DNA of 64,000 nt. Origin: Candidatus Woesearchaeota archaeon. Lineage in GTDB: Archaea; Nanobdellota; Nanobdellia; SCGC-AAA011-G17; JACPIM01. The stretch's first letter is position 1. Each line of letters starts with the position of its first letter. The notes below the pieces were generated by a model. The model was not told the DNA's origin. It ran no database searches and worked only from the letters and a program-made list of their open reading frames with translations. The position numbers were made by a program, and so were the translations under genes. Shown piece by piece: positions 3,555 to 56,901 of this stretch. The DNA is taken from positions 749-64,748 of the forward strand of contig CAZRVI010000001.1 of the NCBI GenBank assembly GCA_964603525.1. Direction: 5' to 3'.

Positions 3555-4400
3555 TTAGAATTTCAGTTTATTTAATCTAGAAATCCTGTCTCTTACTGTT
3601 GGATGGGTAGAAAAAAGAGTAAGTAAAGTTTTTCCTGAAAATGGATTGACAATCATCATGTGACTTGTAATTTCTGTTTGAGAAGTTTTCTTTAGTGGCA
3701 TAATTCTTGCTGCTGATTCTAGTTTTAATAATGCATTTGCTAGTGGTGAAGATTTTCTAATAAATCTTGCTCCGGATTCATCTGCAAGATATTCTCTACT
3801 ACGGGAGATTGCTAATCTTATAATTAAAGCAATTATGGGTGCTAAGATTGCTAAAAATAGTAATTCTAAACCAGAATTTCTTTCTGATCTCCCTCCACCG
3901 AAAATAGCTGCAAATCTTGCCATCATTGCTACATAAGAAATTATACCTGCAATTGTTGCTGCTACTGTTGCTATTAGAATATCTTTGTTTTTAATATGAG
4001 CTATTTCGTGTGCAAGAACGCCTTTTAATTCTTCTTTTGTTAATAATTTTAAAATTCCTTGAGTAACTGCTACTGCAGCATGTTTAGAATTTCTTCCAGT
4101 AGCCAAAGCATTTGGATGTTGGGTTGGAATTATATAAACTTTTGGTTTTGGAATCTTTGCTTTTTTACATATATCCTCAATTATATTATGTAACTCTGGA
4201 GCTTGAGATTTTGAAACTTCTTTAGCTCTGTAGATTGTTAGGATAATTTTATCTGAATAAAAGTAAGTAAAAAAATTCATTAATATTACAAAAATTAAAG
4301 CAATAGTTAATCCTGTATAAGACCAAAATGAACCTATTAGAAGTAATAAAGCTGTTAATATACCCAATAATAATACAGTTTTAATTTGATTTAAAATCAT
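3555..4400 (-). CDS. htpX: HtpX-like M48 membrane zinc metalloprotease
   Basis: Has N-terminal TM helices and an HEIAH zinc motif followed by further TM segments. Confidence 0.85.
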   Translation of the reverse strand: MILNQIKTVLLLGILTALLLLIGSFWSYTGLTIALIFVILMNFFTYFYSDKIILTIYRAKEVSKSQAPELHNIIEDICKKAKIPKPKVYIIPTQHPNALATGRNSKHAAVAVTQGILKLLTKEELKGVLAHEIAHIKNKDILIATVAATIAGIISYVAMMARFAAIFGGGRSERNSGLELLFLAILAPIIALIIRLAISRSREYLADESGARFIRKSSPLANALLKLESAARIMPLKKTSQTEITSHMMIVNPFSGKTLLTLFSTHPTVRDRISRLNKLKF

Positions 4401-4435: not shown

Positions 4436-6193
4436 TTGATTTGTATGCCTTATGATATTATAATTGGAAGGGATGAAGAAGACAGAAAAAAATTTGGTGA
4501 AAGAGGTGCAGTTTTTATTGGTAGAAGTTATGTTAAAATGGGGCAAGTTACTAGTTTAGCTAATAATGTTTTTTTAGATATGGTAAGACCACATGTTATT
4601 TTATTATCTGGGAAGAGAGGTTGTTTAACAGGAGATACTTTAATTTTAACAGATAAAGGCTACAAACAAATAAAAAAATTTAATGAAAAGGAGGATAAAG
4701 TTTTATCATTTAATAAGGCATCAAAGAAATTTGAATGGGAAACTGCAAAATTTCTTGAATACCCAATTTATAATGAAAGTTTATTAAAAATAAAGTTTGA
4801 AAATGATAAAGAAATAAAACTTACAAAAGAACATCCTTTATTGGCTGTTACAGGTGAGAAATTATTGTCTTTACTATGGTTAGAAGCAAATAAATTAAAA
4901 GTAGGGGATAGTATTCTTTCAATTGGAAAATCACTTGAAGATTTAATACCTCTTAAAATAAAAGAAGTATTAGAAATAAGAGGAATAAAAAAGGTTTATG
5001 ATTTAAGAGTTTCTAAGAATAACTCATTTATAGCAAATGGAATAATATCACATAATTCTGGAAAAAGTTACTCAATTTCTGTTATTGCTGAAAGTATTGC
5101 AGAACTACCAAAAGAGATTTCCGAGAATTTATCAGTAATAATTTTTGACACAATGGGAATTTTTTGGACTATGAAATTTCCTAACAAAAGACAAGAAAAA
5201 TTATTAAATAAATGGAATCTTGGGTCAAAAGGATTTGATGTTAGCATATTTACTCCTTCTGGTTTTTATGAGCTATATAAAAGCAAAGGAATTCCTACAG
5301 ATTATAAATTTGAGATTAAAACTTCTGAATTAAGTTCTGGGGATTGGTGTGATGTTTTAAATGTTAATATAATAGAACCTGTTGGTTTATTAATTTCTAG
5401 AGCAGTTGAGAAATTAAAAGGTAATTATTCTATACAAGATATTATAGAAGAGATTAAAAAAGATAAAAAATCTGAACAGAAGGTGAAAGATGCAGCAGAA
5501 AGTATGTTTTTAACTGTTAATAAATGGGGTTTGTTTAGCAAGAAAGGGACAGAGATTAAGGATCTAATAAAACCAAGCAAGGTTTCCATAATAGATGTTA
5601 GTTGTTATACAGAAGTTGGTGGTGGATGGAGTATTAAAGCACTTGTTATAGGATTAATATGTAGAAAACTATTAAGAGAAAGAATTAGTGTTAGAAAGAT
5701 GGAGGAATATAATGAGATAAGATATGGTACTAAATTAACAGGTGATAAAAGAAAAAAGGAGTTACCACAAGTTTGGATTTGTATTGACGAGGCTCATAAA
5801 GTGCTTTCTAAATATGAAAAAACACCAGCTACATATGACTTAATAAGATTATTAAGAGAGGGAAGACAGCCAGGGATTTCATTAGTTTTGGCTACACAAC
5901 AACCAGGTGTTGTACATAATGATGTTTTGACACAAAGTGATATTGTTATTAGCCACAGAGTTACTGCTAAACCAGATATTGATGCCTTGAATAGTATAAT
6001 GCAGACATATTTAATTAAAGATTTGCAGACATACCTCAACAATTTACCAAAACTAAAAGGTTCTGCAATAATATTGGATGATAATTCTGAAAGAATTTAT
6101 CCTATGAGAGTTAGACCAAAGAAAAGTTGGCATGGTGGTGAGGCTCCAAGTGCTATTAAGATAAGTAAAAAGGAAGAGATTGAAAAGCTATAA
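4436..6193 (+). CDS. HerA/FtsK-superfamily P-loop ATPase (DUF87-like), interrupted by a mini-intein
   Basis: The Walker A is split as LLSGKRG | intein | SGKSYS. There is also a Walker B ICIDEAHKV. The extein is about 440 aa. Confidence 0.65.
   Translation: MICMPYDIIIGRDEEDRKKFGERGAVFIGRSYVKMGQVTSLANNVFLDMVRPHVILLSGKRGCLTGDTLILTDKGYKQIKKFNEKEDKVLSFNKASKKFEWETAKFLEYPIYNESLLKIKFENDKEIKLTKEHPLLAVTGEKLLSLLWLEANKLKVGDSILSIGKSLEDLIPLKIKEVLEIRGIKKVYDLRVSKNNSFIANGIISHNSGKSYSISVIAESIAELPKEISENLSVIIFDTMGIFWTMKFPNKRQEKLLNKWNLGSKGFDVSIFTPSGFYELYKSKGIPTDYKFEIKTSELSSGDWCDVLNVNIIEPVGLLISRAVEKLKGNYSIQDIIEEIKKDKKSEQKVKDAAESMFLTVNKWGLFSKKGTEIKDLIKPSKVSIIDVSCYTEVGGGWSIKALVIGLICRKLLRERISVRKMEEYNEIRYGTKLTGDKRKKELPQVWICIDEAHKVLSKYEKTPATYDLIRLLREGRQPGISLVLATQQPGVVHNDVLTQSDIVISHRVTAKPDIDALNSIMQTYLIKDLQTYLNNLPKLKGSAIILDDNSERIYPMRVRPKKSWHGGEAPSAIKISKKEEIEKL
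4622..5056 (+). mobile_element. Mini-intein (Hint domain only, no homing endonuclease), 145 aa, inserted in the P-loop
   Basis: It begins with the Cys of CLTGDTLIL (block A), ends with ...GIISHN, and the +1 residue is Ser. Removing it restores GKRG-SGKS. Confidence 0.75.
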
Positions 6194-6937
6194 CTTAATA
6201 TCTATACAAATTCTATAAACTCCTGGAGAATAAGCACCACACTTTGTTATATTTTTGATTTGAAATTTTTTGATATGTTTTTTAATTATATTTTTGATAT
6301 GTTTTTTATTTATTTCCTCTTTTTTAAGAAAAATATAGAGATGGATAATACCATTTTTTTTAATTTTCTTTTTAATTATATCAAGATATAGTTTAGAAGA
6401 TTTTGGTAAAGGCATGATTATTCTGTCAAATTTTTTTCTAATTTTTGGAAGTATTTTCTTAACATCACCTTTAATGTTTTTGATATTAATTAATTTGTTT
6501 AGTTTTACATTTTCTTCTGCATACTTATGAGCTATAGGGTTAATTTCTATTCCATAAATTTCTTTTGCTTTTGTATTCTTAGCAATTGTCAAGCCATAAG
6601 GTTGAACACCTGAAAAAGCAACTAAAATAGATTCTCCTTTTTTAATTTGTTTAAAGATTCTTTTTCTTTCTTCTGATAGTCTTTGAGAAAAATAACATTT
6701 TGAAACATCTAATTTTATTAGTACATTATTTTCTTTATGTATTGTTTCTGTTCTTTTTTCTCCTGCAAGATACTTTAATTTTCTTATTCTATATTTTCCA
6801 CTAAAAATTCCTGCTCTTTTATATATAGATTTGATATGTTTATGTTTCTTTAATAATATCTGGGCTTGTTTTTTTGTTCCTTTTTCATTTAAAATTGCTA
6901 TACTGCCAATAACATCATAAGAACTTATTTTATCCAT
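6188..6937 (-). CDS. Trm5/Taw2-family (Met-10+ like) tRNA methyltransferase
   Basis: Has the YDVIGSIAIL motif and a class I SAM-MTase core (VAFSGV...). The C-terminus is lysine-rich and repetitive. Confidence 0.55.
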   Translation of the reverse strand: MDKISSYDVIGSIAILNEKGTKKQAQILLKKHKHIKSIYKRAGIFSGKYRIRKLKYLAGEKRTETIHKENNVLIKLDVSKCYFSQRLSEERKRIFKQIKKGESILVAFSGVQPYGLTIAKNTKAKEIYGIEINPIAHKYAEENVKLNKLINIKNIKGDVKKILPKIRKKFDRIIMPLPKSSKLYLDIIKKKIKKNGIIHLYIFLKKEEINKKHIKNIIKKHIKKFQIKNITKCGAYSPGVYRICIDIKL

Positions 6938-19962: not shown

Positions 19963-20334
19963 TTAATATCTTTTAATATAATTATTGATCCCTTCTATTT
20001 GTGATAATCTTGTTTTAAATAAAAATTTTCTGAATTTATAATTTATTTTTATTCCTCTTTTTTGCAACCCTAATTTTAATTTTGCATATAATTTTTTACC
20101 TTCTTTATCTAAATCCAACAACAAAATAACTTCCTTCTGTCTTATTGATTCAATAAACTTATACAAAGGTCCTTTAACAAACTTTATATTTTTAATATCT
20201 AGTTTTTCTAATGCTTTTTTATCTTTTTTTCCTTCTACAATTATTAGTTTTTTAGAATCTTTTAACTCCTCTATCCATTCAAAGAGATTTTTCATGTGAT
20301 AATAAGGGCCTGACGGGATTTGAACCCGCGACAT
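19963..20334 (-). CDS. Toprim-domain protein
   Basis: IIVEGKKDKKAL...LLLDLDKEG, a Toprim E...DxD signature. Confidence 0.5.
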   Translation of the reverse strand: MSRVQIPSGPYYHMKNLFEWIEELKDSKKLIIVEGKKDKKALEKLDIKNIKFVKGPLYKFIESIRQKEVILLLDLDKEGKKLYAKLKLGLQKRGIKINYKFRKFLFKTRLSQIEGINNYIKRY

Positions 20335-20426
20335 CTTAACCGGAATTTAAACTCCTCTGGTCACCCCGGAGATTAAGAGCTTCACCAAGAACTTACAGGC
20401 GCTCTAACCGGGCTGAGCTACAGGCC
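20305..20426 (-). tRNA. Intron-containing tRNA gene (about 122 nt), anticodon unresolved
   Basis: On the minus strand, the acceptor GGGCCTG pairs with CAGGCCC, the D-arm is GCTC-AGCCCGGTTA-GAGC and the T-arm is GCGGG-TTCAAAT-CCCGT. An insertion of about 45 nt sits between the D-arm and the T-arm. Confidence 0.7.
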
Positions 20427-20502
20427 CATAACTATATAAACAAAAATTAAATTTAAAAATCTTTCCAAAAAGTATATAAGGCTAAAAGTTTAGTCAAAAA
20501 CT

Positions 20503-37101: not shown

Positions 37102-37486
37102 TAATGTTGCAACTAGATTGGGATGGACCCCGGGATTAATCCGGTGATTGAACCCAGAATGATGCCTATTGACAATGCAATAAATATTTCTAATGTCACC
37201 ATCTCACCCCCAAAATTTTGTGGTCCTTTTAAATTATTTTTATTTAAAGAGATTCTAATATTTCTCTAACTTTTTTACTTCCTAACTTTTTTAATTTTTT
37301 AAATGTTTTTTTATTTACTCTGATATGGTATTGCTTTGGATAATTCATCTTTTTTTTATCTCCCGCCATAATTTTAATATTTTAATTTTAAAACTTTATA
37401 ATCATACTTGTCCTACATAATATATTTTGTAAAGCAAATATTATTTTACAATAGTATATATAAATATAAATGTCCTACAAATATAT

Positions 37487-41015: not shown

Positions 41016-41737
41016 GAATAGTTAAAGTTCCTTTTTCTGAAGGTAGTTTGGGAAGAAATATTGGTTGTGAAAAAGCTCCCCATGAAATTTGTAAATATTT
41101 AAAATGTTTTGGTATTAGTAGTGTTAAAGTTGTTAAAGGAAATTTAGATGAGACAGGCAAGAATATTGAGAAAGCAAAAGGGGATGTTTTTATTGGAGGG
41201 GATCATTCTTTGACTTATTTTAGTTTTAAAAGCTTTGCGAAAAGAAAGAAAAATCCTGGTTTGCTTATTTTAGATGCACATTTGGATTGTGATTATTATA
41301 CTGGGAGTGTAACTCATGAGGATTTTGTTAGGAAATTGGTTGATGATGGGATTTTAAAAAAGAAAAATATTGTGTGGGTTGGTGTAAGAAGAGTTTTTAA
41401 AGTTGAAAGAGAATTTTGTAAGGGTTTAAATGTTTTTAAAATTAATTCTATAAAAAGAAATTTAAGAAATGTTTGTAGAAATGTTTTGGATTTGTGTAGG
41501 GATTTTAGTGATGTTTATTTGAGTATTGATATAGATGTTTTGGATCCTAAATTTGCTCCTGGTACATATTATAAAGAAAGAAATGGGATGAGTGATAAAG
41601 AATTGTTCTTCTTTTTAAAAAGATTAAGGTTTTTAAGGAATCTTAGGAGAGTAGATTTAGTTGAAGTTAATCCTGATTTAGATGAGGATGAAAAGACAAT
41701 TAAACTCGGAGTTAAAATAATTAATAGATTAAAATGA
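41006..41737 (+). CDS. speB: Arginase-family protein (agmatinase-like)
   Basis: Has the GGDHSLT, DAHLD and SIDIDVLDP Mn-binding motifs. Confidence 0.7.
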   Translation: MEMRIVKVPFSEGSLGRNIGCEKAPHEICKYLKCFGISSVKVVKGNLDETGKNIEKAKGDVFIGGDHSLTYFSFKSFAKRKKNPGLLILDAHLDCDYYTGSVTHEDFVRKLVDDGILKKKNIVWVGVRRVFKVEREFCKGLNVFKINSIKRNLRNVCRNVLDLCRDFSDVYLSIDIDVLDPKFAPGTYYKERNGMSDKELFFFLKRLRFLRNLRRVDLVEVNPDLDEDEKTIKLGVKIINRLK

Positions 41738-42261
41738 GGGCCTTTATATCTATAGAGCTACCGAAAGAGGTTAGAGATGAGCTATGGGAATTACAAAAAG
41801 GGTTTAAAAATTTAGCTAAAGTTAAGTGGGTTGCAAAGAAAAACTATCATGTTTGCCTGAAGTTTCTTGGGGATATTGATGATAGTAAAGTTAAAGAAGT
41901 AAAGGGGGCTTTAAAGAAAGTTAAATTTACACCTTTTGAAGTTAATTTAGGAGAAATTGGAGTTTTTCCTAATGAAAGCCATATAAATGTTATTTGGGTT
42001 GGTTTAGAACCATCTTCTAAGATAATAAATTTACAAAGTGATATTGAAGATTCTTTATATGGGTTATTTGCGAGAGCTAAAAAATTTGCTGTGCATGTAA
42101 CTGTTGGAAGAGTTAAGGGTGTTAAAGATAAGAAAAAATTTATTGAAAAATTAAAAAGTTTACAGGTAAAAAAATTAAAATTTAAAATAGAAAATTTCTA
42201 TTTAGTTAAAAGCGAGTTAACTAAAGAAGGTCCAAAGTATAAAATTTTAGAAAAGTTTTAA
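41734..42261 (+). CDS. ligT: 2'-5' RNA ligase (LigT) / 2H phosphoesterase
   Basis: Has two Hx(T/S)x motifs (HVCLKF, HVTVGR) and is about 175 aa. Confidence 0.6.
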   Translation: MRAFISIELPKEVRDELWELQKGFKNLAKVKWVAKKNYHVCLKFLGDIDDSKVKEVKGALKKVKFTPFEVNLGEIGVFPNESHINVIWVGLEPSSKIINLQSDIEDSLYGLFARAKKFAVHVTVGRVKGVKDKKKFIEKLKSLQVKKLKFKIENFYLVKSELTKEGPKYKILEKF

Positions 42262-56535: not shown

Positions 56536-56627
56536 AACTTTGAACCAAATTTTTTAAGTAGTTTACTTTTTTGTTTAATGGGTTTATAGAAATGTTTTTA
56601 AAGCAAAATTTTTTTATGAATAAAGGT

Positions 56628-56779
56628 GTCCCCGTAGCTCAGTGGTTAGAGCACACGGCTTTATCAAATAAATAAAGTGTGAAGCTGTTAACCATTGATA
56701 GATACCGTGGAGCATTGTATGTGCGGAATGTCGGAGGTTCGAAAAAGCTTAAAAGGCTTAGGAATTCCTCCCGGGGGCG
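56628..56779 (+). tRNA. tRNA gene of about 152 nt with multiple insertions. One is a long intron in the anticodon arm, one a 22-nt insertion in the T-loop, and there is a long variable region. The anticodon is unresolved
   Basis: The acceptor GTCCCCG pairs with CGGGGGC (one G-U pair). The D-arm is GCTC-AGTGGTTA-GAGC. The anticodon stem CACGG pairs with CCGTG 46 nt away. The T-stem GGAGG and CCTCC flank TTCGAAA plus an AAGC..GCTT hairpin. Confidence 0.6.
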
Positions 56780-56783
56780 CTTT

Positions 56784-56890
56784 GGTCCGGTGGCTCAGTC
56801 TGGTTAGAGCACTCGACTAAATTTAGGGTGAAACTGATAACTGGATTGTTAGAGATCGAGAGGTCGCAGGTTCAAATCCTGCCCGGACCA
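56784..56890 (+). tRNA. tRNA gene with an anticodon-arm intron of about 34 nt; anticodon unresolved
   Basis: The acceptor GGTCCGG pairs perfectly with CCGGACC and the discriminator is A. The D-arm is GCTC-AGTCTGGTTA-GAGC. The anticodon stem CTCGA pairs with TCGAG 39 nt away. Variable loop AGGTC. The T-arm is GCAGG-TTCAAAT-CCTGC. It starts 4 nt after the previous tRNA. Confidence 0.75.
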
Positions 56891-56901
56891 TTTTTTAAAA
56901 A

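Follow-up and report, generated by a model that had tools for sequence, protein, structure and literature searches.

The genes described here lie in a stretch of 64,000 nucleotides (hereafter, the window) of contig CAZRVI010000001.1 from Candidatus Woesearchaeota and form a tandem pair, 56628-56779 and 56784-56890, both on the forward strand, as can be read directly from the sequence. We interpret this pair as tRNA-Asn(GUU) with four bulge-helix-bulge (BHB) introns followed by tRNA-Ile(GAU) with two BHB introns, spliced as proposed below, and put the probability of this interpretation at about 0.88. In both genes, the insert in the anticodon region consists of two BHB introns, at positions 30/31 and 37/38, which flank a micro-exon of 7 nt carrying the anticodon. 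An earlier reading of the same letters (the sequence-only reading) had recognized two real tRNA genes 4 nt apart, with a lone G-U pair in the first and introns in both; direct inspection, the BHB helices and the perfect cloverleafs restored by splicing bear this out. The parts of the two genes are as follows.

56628-56779, forward strand: gene 1, tRNA-Asn(GUU), 152 nt, five exons and four BHB introns (top solution of the splicing solver, score 37.0)
56628-56657, forward strand: gene 1 exon 1, tRNA nucleotides 1-30
56658-56683, forward strand: gene 1 intron 1, 26 nt, position 30/31
56684-56690, forward strand: gene 1 micro-exon GCUGUUA, tRNA nucleotides 31-37, anticodon GUU
56691-56703, forward strand: gene 1 intron 2, 13 nt, canonical position 37/38, central helix CUGU/AUAG
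56704-56710, forward strand: gene 1 exon 3, ACCGUGG, tRNA nucleotides 38-44
56711-56728, forward strand: gene 1 intron 3, 18 nt, position 44/45 in the variable loop
56729-56743, forward strand: gene 1 exon 4, tRNA nucleotides 45-59
56744-56765, forward strand: gene 1 intron 4, 22 nt, T-loop position 59/60
56766-56779, forward strand: gene 1 exon 5, tRNA nucleotides 60-73, with discriminator G73
56784-56890, forward strand: gene 2, tRNA-Ile(GAU), 107 nt, three exons and two BHB introns (Rfam, 61.5 bits; solver)
56816-56832, forward strand: gene 2 intron 1, 17 nt, position 30/31, central helix CACU/GGUG, inner helix CUA/UAG
56833-56839, forward strand: gene 2 micro-exon ACUGAUA, tRNA nucleotides 31-37, anticodon GAU
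56840-56854, forward strand: gene 2 intron 2, 15 nt, canonical position 37/38, central helix CUGA/UUAG, bulges UAA and AGA, each cut after its second nucleotide

Spliced gene 1 is a 73-nt product, in which CCA is not encoded, with the acceptor stem GUCCCCG/CGGGGGC, a single wobble pair (U2-G71) and the discriminator G73. Its perfect stems, U33, A37 and T-loop of the UUCRANY type are those of a tRNA cloverleaf, and ARAGORN with default settings calls it Asn-gtt. Spliced gene 2 is 75 nt long, has A as its discriminator, and is called Ile-gat under the same settings, likewise with perfect stems, U33 and A37. The T-loops of the two products are UUCGAAU and UUCAAAU, respectively. Anticodon-loop heptamers that fit the respective tRNA bodies, CUGUUAA in gene 1 and CUGAUAA in gene 2, are present within the inserts. 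With introns at 30/31, 37/38, 44/45 and 59/60 in gene 1, and at 30/31 and 37/38 in gene 2, the pair belongs with the multi-intron tRNA genes of archaea.

The distances given in the sequence-only reading were accurate (46 nt between CACGG and CCGTG in gene 1, 39 nt between CTCGA and TCGAG in gene 2, 23 nt from the anticodon arm to the T-stem of gene 1, and a 22-nt insert after its TTCGAA), and its intron at T-loop position 59/60 is retained here. Its count of at least two insertions in gene 1 was right as to multiplicity, the actual number being four. The cut is placed after the second bulge nucleotide, which fits the canonical 37/38 geometry. The BHB itself was taken as two 3-nt bulges separated by a 4-bp helix (PMC5829648). 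In gene 1, intron 1 has the central helix CACA/UGUG between the bulges CGG and AAG, and the inner helix CUUUAU/AUAAAG; the 5' half of intron 2, ACCAUUGA, is complementary to UCAGUGGU of the D-arm (see below); intron 3, which is absent from all uninterrupted orthologues, combines the central helix CCGU/GCGG with the inner helix GCAU/AUGU; and intron 4 uses the T-stem as its outer helix, with the central helix UUCG/AGGA (three of four positions paired) and the inner helix AAGC/GCUU. BHB introns have flanking helices (h, h') as well, or at least one of the two in the relaxed hBH and HBh' forms. Across the pair, inner helices of 3-6 bp are available for introns 1, 3 and 4, and the outer helices are provided by the T-stem for intron 4, by the anticodon stem for intron 2, and, for intron 1, by the D-arm paired with the micro-exon and intron 2.

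When a third gene of the window, tRNA-Lys(CUU) (see below), is included, 35 of the 36 central-helix positions of the nine introns are paired: eight introns have 4/4 pairs, and the T-loop intron has 3/4. In the pair alone, five of six introns have the complete helix. Arbitrary deletions in these genes reach a 4/4 central helix in 2.4-3.2% of cases, and each proposed intron has just 1-4 equivalent boundaries. A chance origin of the BHB pairing is excluded.

Our solver walks a cloverleaf template along the precursor and permits jumps only where at least 3/4 positions of a BHB central helix pair; its top solutions coincide with the models built by hand for all three genes. A version without terms for the flanking helices tied GUU with UUU for gene 1, and these terms were then added. 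The four-intron count of gene 1 is robust, the best three-intron solution scoring 7 units lower. Spliced alignment that is blind to BHB geometry breaks gene 1 by four gaps, at or beside the modelled introns, whichever of four uninterrupted Asn references is used; with that of L092 (comparison loci are designated here by L numbers), three of the four gaps fall exactly at the modelled introns. The same alignment opens two gaps in gene 2, exactly at gene coordinates 33-49 and 57-71, with two Ile references.

The pair sits just downstream of genes for topoisomerase VI B and A, aIF2-beta, aIF1A and a KH protein, neighbours that identify the host as an archaeon; its topoisomerase VI A gene (TopoVI-A) places it in Candidatus Woesearchaeota (Nanoarchaeia, DPANN), the best species-level relative being 75% identical. 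Identical contigs occur in assemblies ERZ27248458 and ERZ27247988, and L001 and L002, which are contigs of the same population identical to the window, carry no comparative information. A metagenome scan with the Asn D-arm plus CTGTTAA recovered many uninterrupted tRNA-Asn genes, the best of them 65-67/73 identical to spliced gene 1; the intronless Asn gene of L092 stands at 67/73, and several of the recovered genes have tRNA-Ile(GAU) next in line. The order Asn, then Ile(GAU), recurs in L119, L015, L009 and marine archaeal contigs, with spacers of 3 nt in L119 and 1 nt in L015, and this synteny confirms the isotypes of genes 1 and 2. In L119, whose TopoVI-A is 80% identical, an intronless Asn gene is followed by an Ile gene that shares both introns with gene 2. 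Intron 1 of that gene also ends in GGGUGAA, and the inner helix CUA/UAG is replaced there by CUC/GAG, a compensatory change. The 30/31 intron is found in the Asn genes of L004, L006, L011, L035, L072 and L003, and its central helix covaries, from CACA/UGUG to CACG/CGUG in L011. An intron at 59/60 is also present in the Arg-UCU gene of L049.

The closest GTDB relative, Ca. Woesearchaeota Meg22_1012_Bin_171 (JAFCDX010000013.1, L003), has a positional orthologue of gene 1 at 4105-4286, about 45 nt downstream of TopoVI-A. This tRNA-Asn(GUU) gene contains five insertions: 17 nt in the D-loop, 29 nt at 30/31, 13 nt at 37/38, 28 nt at about 43-45, and 22 nt at 53/54. Four of the five have a 4/4 central helix, and the fifth has 2/4 in a hand model with a boundary uncertain by one or two nucleotides. 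ARAGORN misses the unspliced gene and calls its spliced 73-nt product Asn-gtt. Intron gain and loss are, as these comparisons show, very fast between close relatives, because in the closest ones, L118 and L119, the Asn gene is intronless. In L118 (TopoVI-A 81% identical), tRNA-Asn at 5823-5898 and tRNA-Ile at 6632-6740, the latter with a single intron at 27/28, are separated by an open reading frame (ORF) with a LAGLIDADG_3 homing-endonuclease domain (5971-6594).

Several points weigh against our interpretation of the pair. The central helix of the T-loop intron has only three of four pairs, with a G-A mismatch. The anticodon stem of gene 2, together with CUAA/UUAG, can form a perfect 'outer' BHB that would delete the anticodon. 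In gene 1, the minimum-free-energy folds place introns 1, 3 and 4 in registers slightly off the ideal 3-nt bulges. Neither EndA nor RtcB, the enzymes expected to splice these genes, was found among the 30 ORFs of the window scanned against Pfam, the window being 64 kb of the genome. The Mann-Whitney p of 3.7e-5 for the D-arm contrast discussed below is optimistic, since the genes compared are phylogenetically related. The splicing of the pair, its order and the exact cut sites are predictions from sequence. Finally, solver margins over the runner-up anticodons are small, at 2.0 (gene 1), 1.4 (gene 2) and 0.6 (gene 3), and the anticodon assignment therefore leans on the orthologues.

Rfam and ARAGORN see these genes imperfectly. 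With the Rfam tRNA model RF00005, whose gathering score is 29, gene 2 reaches 61.5 bits, its anticodon loop being aligned with a 37-nt insert; unspliced gene 1 obtains a partial match of 13.3 bits and no call at the gathering score, owing to its four introns. A covariance-model search, the check put forward in the sequence-only reading, thus recovers gene 2 and leaves gene 1 uncalled for a reason that does not refute it. Without its intron option, ARAGORN finds neither gene and calls nothing in the window; with it, gene 2 is reported as Phe(aaa) i(39,32), and gene 1 is still missed. In the MAFFT alignment, a single gap spans intron 1, the micro-exon and intron 2, and it is because Rfam, ARAGORN and MAFFT all merge these three elements that the false anticodons UUA and AAA arise. 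No Rfam intron family matches the region, and the inserts are only 13-26 nt long; they are not self-splicing group I or group II introns, which run to hundreds of nucleotides and contain a ribozyme core.

This merging could be taken as evidence for a rival scheme, in which each gene has one long anticodon-loop intron and the anticodons are UUA (a UAA/UAG suppressor on an Asn body) and AAA. The scheme can also point to the gene 2 anticodon stem with CUAA/UUAG, formally a perfect BHB, and, in gene 1, to a CUUU/AUAG helix with three of four pairs, identified by hand and corresponding to the solver solution 'TTA'. It is, however, highly improbable: the resulting loops would have U37 and either A34 or a stop anticodon, the gene 1 solution scores 30.0 against 37.0, the inserts hold exact anticodon loops matching the tRNA bodies in all three genes, and the uninterrupted orthologues have GUU, GAU and CUU. 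The sequence-only reading was correct in distrusting UUA and AAA and in holding that splicing here is no single canonical event, the true anticodons being GUU and GAU. A suppressor tRNA or stop-codon reassignment was considered and dropped, given the U37 of the UUA solution, its deficit of 7 units and the GUU of the orthologues. Of the CTAA/TTAG helix seen earlier in gene 2, the 3' half (TTAG with the AGA bulge) does belong to intron 2, while the 5' partner is CUGA, nucleotides 32-35; CTAA lies inside intron 1, and splicing there would remove the anticodon. Nor is the CUAA mimic kept in the orthologous gene of L119, which by hand comparison has CUCU facing CCAG, 2/4 pairs.

The start of gene 2 intron 1, ACUAAAU (56816-56822), resembles the micro-exon ACUGAUA, and the 'outer' BHB would bring it together with 56850-56856; the resemblance is probably incidental. 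Gene 1 has a weaker mimic of this kind, GCUUUAU versus GCUGUUA.

The interpretation of gene 1 as an intact gene with four introns has to be weighed against three further possibilities. It might be a decaying pseudogene with random insertions, the functional tRNA-Asn being elsewhere in the genome; the gene does fall below the Rfam gathering score, L118 and L119 do have intronless Asn genes, and only 64 kb of the genome is visible. Yet every stem and conserved nucleotide is intact in the spliced product, a BHB bounds every insertion, the five-times interrupted positional orthologue in L003 still restores a perfect tRNA, in six other species the Asn gene is interrupted at the same positions by one to three introns, and the sequence is identical in two other assemblies, so that decay is a very unlikely explanation. 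Much the same can be said, with slightly more assurance, of a shift of intron 1 from gene coordinates 31-56 to 36-61, which would turn the anticodon into UUU (Lys). In the shifted deletion, the central helix, GGCU/AGCU, is likewise fully paired (4/4) and the inner helix has 3 bp; this model equalled the GUU model before flanking helices were scored. With them, the GUU model, which has a 6-bp inner helix and a long outer one, scores 37.0 versus 35.0; moreover, the tRNA body is that of Asn (67/73 identity to Asn genes, G73, Asn-Ile synteny), and a 30/31 position with a 3' end in ...GUGAA is common to gene 2, gene 3 and six Asn orthologues. As for the 23 nt preceding the T-stem, the sequence-only reading had allowed either a class II variable arm or a further intron. 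Their length is in the class II range and GCAU/AUGU could form a small hairpin, but tRNA-Asn is a class I isotype, the variable loop is 5 nt long in every orthologue, with the form RNGUC, the 18-nt segment is bounded by a BHB with 4/4 pairs (CCGU/GCGG), and L003 has an insertion at nearly the same place. A long arm kept in the mature tRNA is the least credible of these possibilities, and the further intron, 18 nt at 44/45, is the part of that claim which stands.

The same micro-exon arrangement is found once more in the window, in a gene on the opposite strand.

20305-20427, reverse strand: gene 3, tRNA-Lys(CUU), three BHB introns and the same 7-nt anticodon micro-exon (Rfam, solver, splicing)
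20395-20381, reverse strand: gene 3 intron at 30/31, 15 nt
20373-20362, reverse strand: gene 3 intron at 37/38, 12 nt
20356-20336, reverse strand: gene 3 intron at 42/43, 21 nt

Unspliced, gene 3 scores 43.7 bits with Rfam, with a 62-nt insert, and is called Leu(taa) by ARAGORN; the spliced 75-nt product has perfect stems and the loop heptamer CUCUUAA, and default ARAGORN calls it Lys-ctt. Its discriminator, U73, is shared with the orthologues of L122 and L125. This U73 and the 0.6-unit solver margin suggested tRNA-Thr(GGU) as a candidate, which is ruled out by the syntenic orthologue in L122: this gene, also with U73, has the 30/31 intron only, and its CUCUUAA loop is contiguous. Shared sequence among the 30/31 introns of the three genes was considered as a sign of transposition and rejected, as only the 3' end ...GUGAA is common to them; it is common because it pairs with the conserved C25-R26-C27 and supplies the AA bulge.

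By the established archaeal pathway, EndA would cut in both 3-nt bulges of each BHB, and RtcB would join the exons; RNase P and tRNase Z would separate the two tRNAs across their 4-nt spacer, and CCA would be added after processing, since none is encoded. In the primary transcript, the D-arm may pair with the micro-exon and the 5' half of intron 2, making a long outer helix for the BHB of intron 1. This pairing, of 14 bp in gene 1 and 11 bp in gene 2, does appear when the precursors are folded for minimum free energy, and the paired segments covary between orthologues (UCAGUGGU:ACCAUUGA, UCAAUUGG:CCAAUUGA, GCUCAG:CUGAGC). The duplex between D-arm and intron 2 has a mean z-score of -2.49 in 15 genes with an upstream intron; where the 37/38 intron stands alone (10 genes), the mean is -0.17. 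The BHB of intron 2 would need the anticodon stem, which intron 1 splits, and the central helix of intron 3 would use the 3' strand of the same stem, so that both introns would have to be removed before intron 2. The predicted order is thus introns 1 and 3 first and intron 2 last, with the T-loop intron 4 independent of the rest.

Complementarity to the D-arm is confined to 37/38 introns that accompany another intron upstream, which suggests cooperative, ordered splicing. A more general proposal, which we offer tentatively and hold to be somewhat doubtful, is that Woesearchaeota have a recurrent two-intron module, in which the D-arm complementarity of the 37/38 intron builds the outer helix for the BHB of an intron at 27/28-30/31, enforcing the order of splicing and leaving the anticodon on a 7-nt micro-exon, and that from this module tRNA-Asn went on to reach four introns (five in L003). 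If so, one intron would, in cis, provide the structure that guides the removal of a second, and the substrate range of the DPANN endonuclease would be at least as broad as that of the Thermoproteales or Asgard enzymes. The D-arm complementarity offers a testable example of an intron that would assist in presenting a second one to the splicing endonuclease.

We surveyed 513 kb from 84 Woesearchaeota loci with ARAGORN, introns allowed, and obtained 82 calls, many of them with impossible anticodons such as Stop-tta, Pyl-cta, SeC-tca, Phe-aaa and Thr-agt. The solver, although probably wrong in a few cases (e.g. L075, L050 and L043), reduces these calls to a small set of syntenic orthologues (Asn-GTT, Ile-GAT, Arg-TCT and Cys-GCA), and its anticodons agree with those that ARAGORN gives for intronless copies at the same positions in other species. 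Among 76 class-I genes, 34 have no introns, 19 have one, 22 have two and one has three; the commonest positions are 37/38 (32 introns), 30/31 (11), the D-loop (7) and 27/28 (4). In 33 of the 42 intron-bearing genes, the anticodon reported by ARAGORN differs from that of the solver. A seed scan recovered further genes that ARAGORN had missed altogether, including three-intron Asn genes in L063 and L080 and the Asn gene of L003. Spurious ARAGORN calls of Stop(tta), Pyl(cta), SeC(tca) and Thr(ggt/agt) are found in L016, L018, L022, L026, L044, L051, L064, L065, L119, L125 and others, where the underlying genes are ordinary Ile-GAU, Arg-UCU, Asn-GUU or Lys-CUU, their introns being non-canonical or paired. 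In this way, false suppressor tRNAs arise systematically in DPANN bins. Such errors can suggest changes of the genetic code that do not exist, and the missed genes deflate the tRNA counts by which the quality of DPANN genome bins is judged.

Multi-intron BHB tRNA genes are already known, and the Woesearchaeota pair extends this kind to a poorly charted lineage. A close parallel is in Thermoproteales (Crenarchaeota), in a different superphylum, where one gene may likewise have several short BHB introns, at the canonical and at many non-canonical positions (Pyrobaculum calidifontis has 71 introns in 46 genes), and closely spaced introns have to come out one after another before the next BHB forms (PMC4033280, PMC8450103). 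Reviews of 2014 and 2021 put the maximum at three introns per archaeal tRNA gene (PMC4033280, PMC8450103); the present genes, from a DPANN archaeon with a G+C content of 28.8%, have as many as four (five in L003). The enzymes may differ too, as the Thermoproteales endonuclease is an (alpha-beta)2 enzyme with a Crenarchaea-specific loop, whereas the proposal for DPANN is an alpha4 enzyme with an 'L3' loop (PMC5829648). In Asgard Atabeyarchaeia and Freyarchaeia, 92-95% of tRNA genes are intron-bearing, more than half have several introns, and Supplementary Data 4 of that study lists four-intron genes, namely Arg-TCT, Ile2-CAT and Leu-GAG in Freya and Trp-CCA in Atabeya-2 (PMC11291895, Valentin-Alvarado et al. 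2024). Four introns are therefore not a record (PMC11291895). This is, however, a different lineage, for which neither the 30/31 and 37/38 micro-exon module nor pairing of an intron with the D-arm was described, and in whose table no five-intron gene was seen. The five introns of the L003 gene exceed every per-gene tRNA count that our literature search turned up.

Ectopic and multiple tRNA introns also occur in a eukaryotic nuclear genome, that of the red alga Cyanidioschyzon merolae, where reverse-transcription PCR on a three-intron tRNA demonstrated that outer introns leave before the one at 37/38 (PMC3728597); the same order is proposed here from the models. Split and tri-split tRNAs of Nanoarchaeum equitans and Caldivirga maquilingensis are joined through BHBs by the same endonuclease and ligase, but their parts are encoded by separate genes acting in trans, whereas the exons of the present genes all follow one another in cis and in order, over 152 and 107 nt. 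Within DPANN, Kaneta et al. (2018) found raised tRNA gene disruption, including in one Woesearchaeon (PMC5829648), and incomplete predicted tRNA sets were read as a sign of 'unidentified disrupted tRNA genes' (PMC5829648, PMC3239211). That work on members of the same superphylum (ARMAN-2/Micrarchaeota with its epsilon2 EndA, and the Woesearchaeon) gave summary proportions from tRNAscan-SE only, as opposed to the gene-level models presented here (PMC5829648, PMC3239211). Our literature search found no gene-level account in Woesearchaeota of four- or five-intron tRNA genes or of the micro-exon architecture. What seems to deserve attention is the recurrent 30/31 and 37/38 micro-exon module, the complementarity of an intron to the D-arm and the five-intron orthologue in L003. 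The present data extend extreme intron loads, four to five per gene with exons of 7 nt, to DPANN.

The immediate surroundings of the pair contain likely signals for its expression.

56595-56603, forward strand: TATA-box-like TTTTTAAAG, about 26-31 nt upstream of gene 1 (sequence)
56780-56783, forward strand: 4-nt spacer CTTT between gene 1 and gene 2 (sequence)
56891-56896, forward strand: run of six T directly 3' of gene 2 (sequence)

We regard TTTTTAAAG as the putative archaeal promoter of the pair; in L003, a comparable TTTTAAA precedes the orthologous Asn gene by about 30 nt. The T6 run at 56891-56896 is a likely archaeal transcription stop, and the two tRNAs are probably transcribed as a single dicistronic precursor extending from the TATA-like box to the T-run. 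In many species (L003-L082), tRNA genes cluster just downstream of TopoVI-A, either Asn(+Ile) or Arg-UCU(+Cys-GCA). In the closest TopoVI-A relatives the pair is not directly downstream of that gene, and L118 and L119 have it further along. With the gene beyond it varying, the cluster looks like a recurrent rearrangement point.

Elsewhere in the window, the intergenic region 37106-37169, which has no Rfam match even at permissive thresholds, is a G+C-rich island (about 52% or more, versus 29% for the genome) with the hairpin CCGGGATTAATCCGG. The ORF at 41734-42261 (forward strand) encodes a LigT-like 2H phosphoesterase or '2'-5' RNA ligase' domain (Pfam E = 2.6e-29). Enzymes of the LigT-like family work on RNA ends that bear a 2',3'-cyclic phosphate, and the splicing endonuclease leaves ends of this kind.

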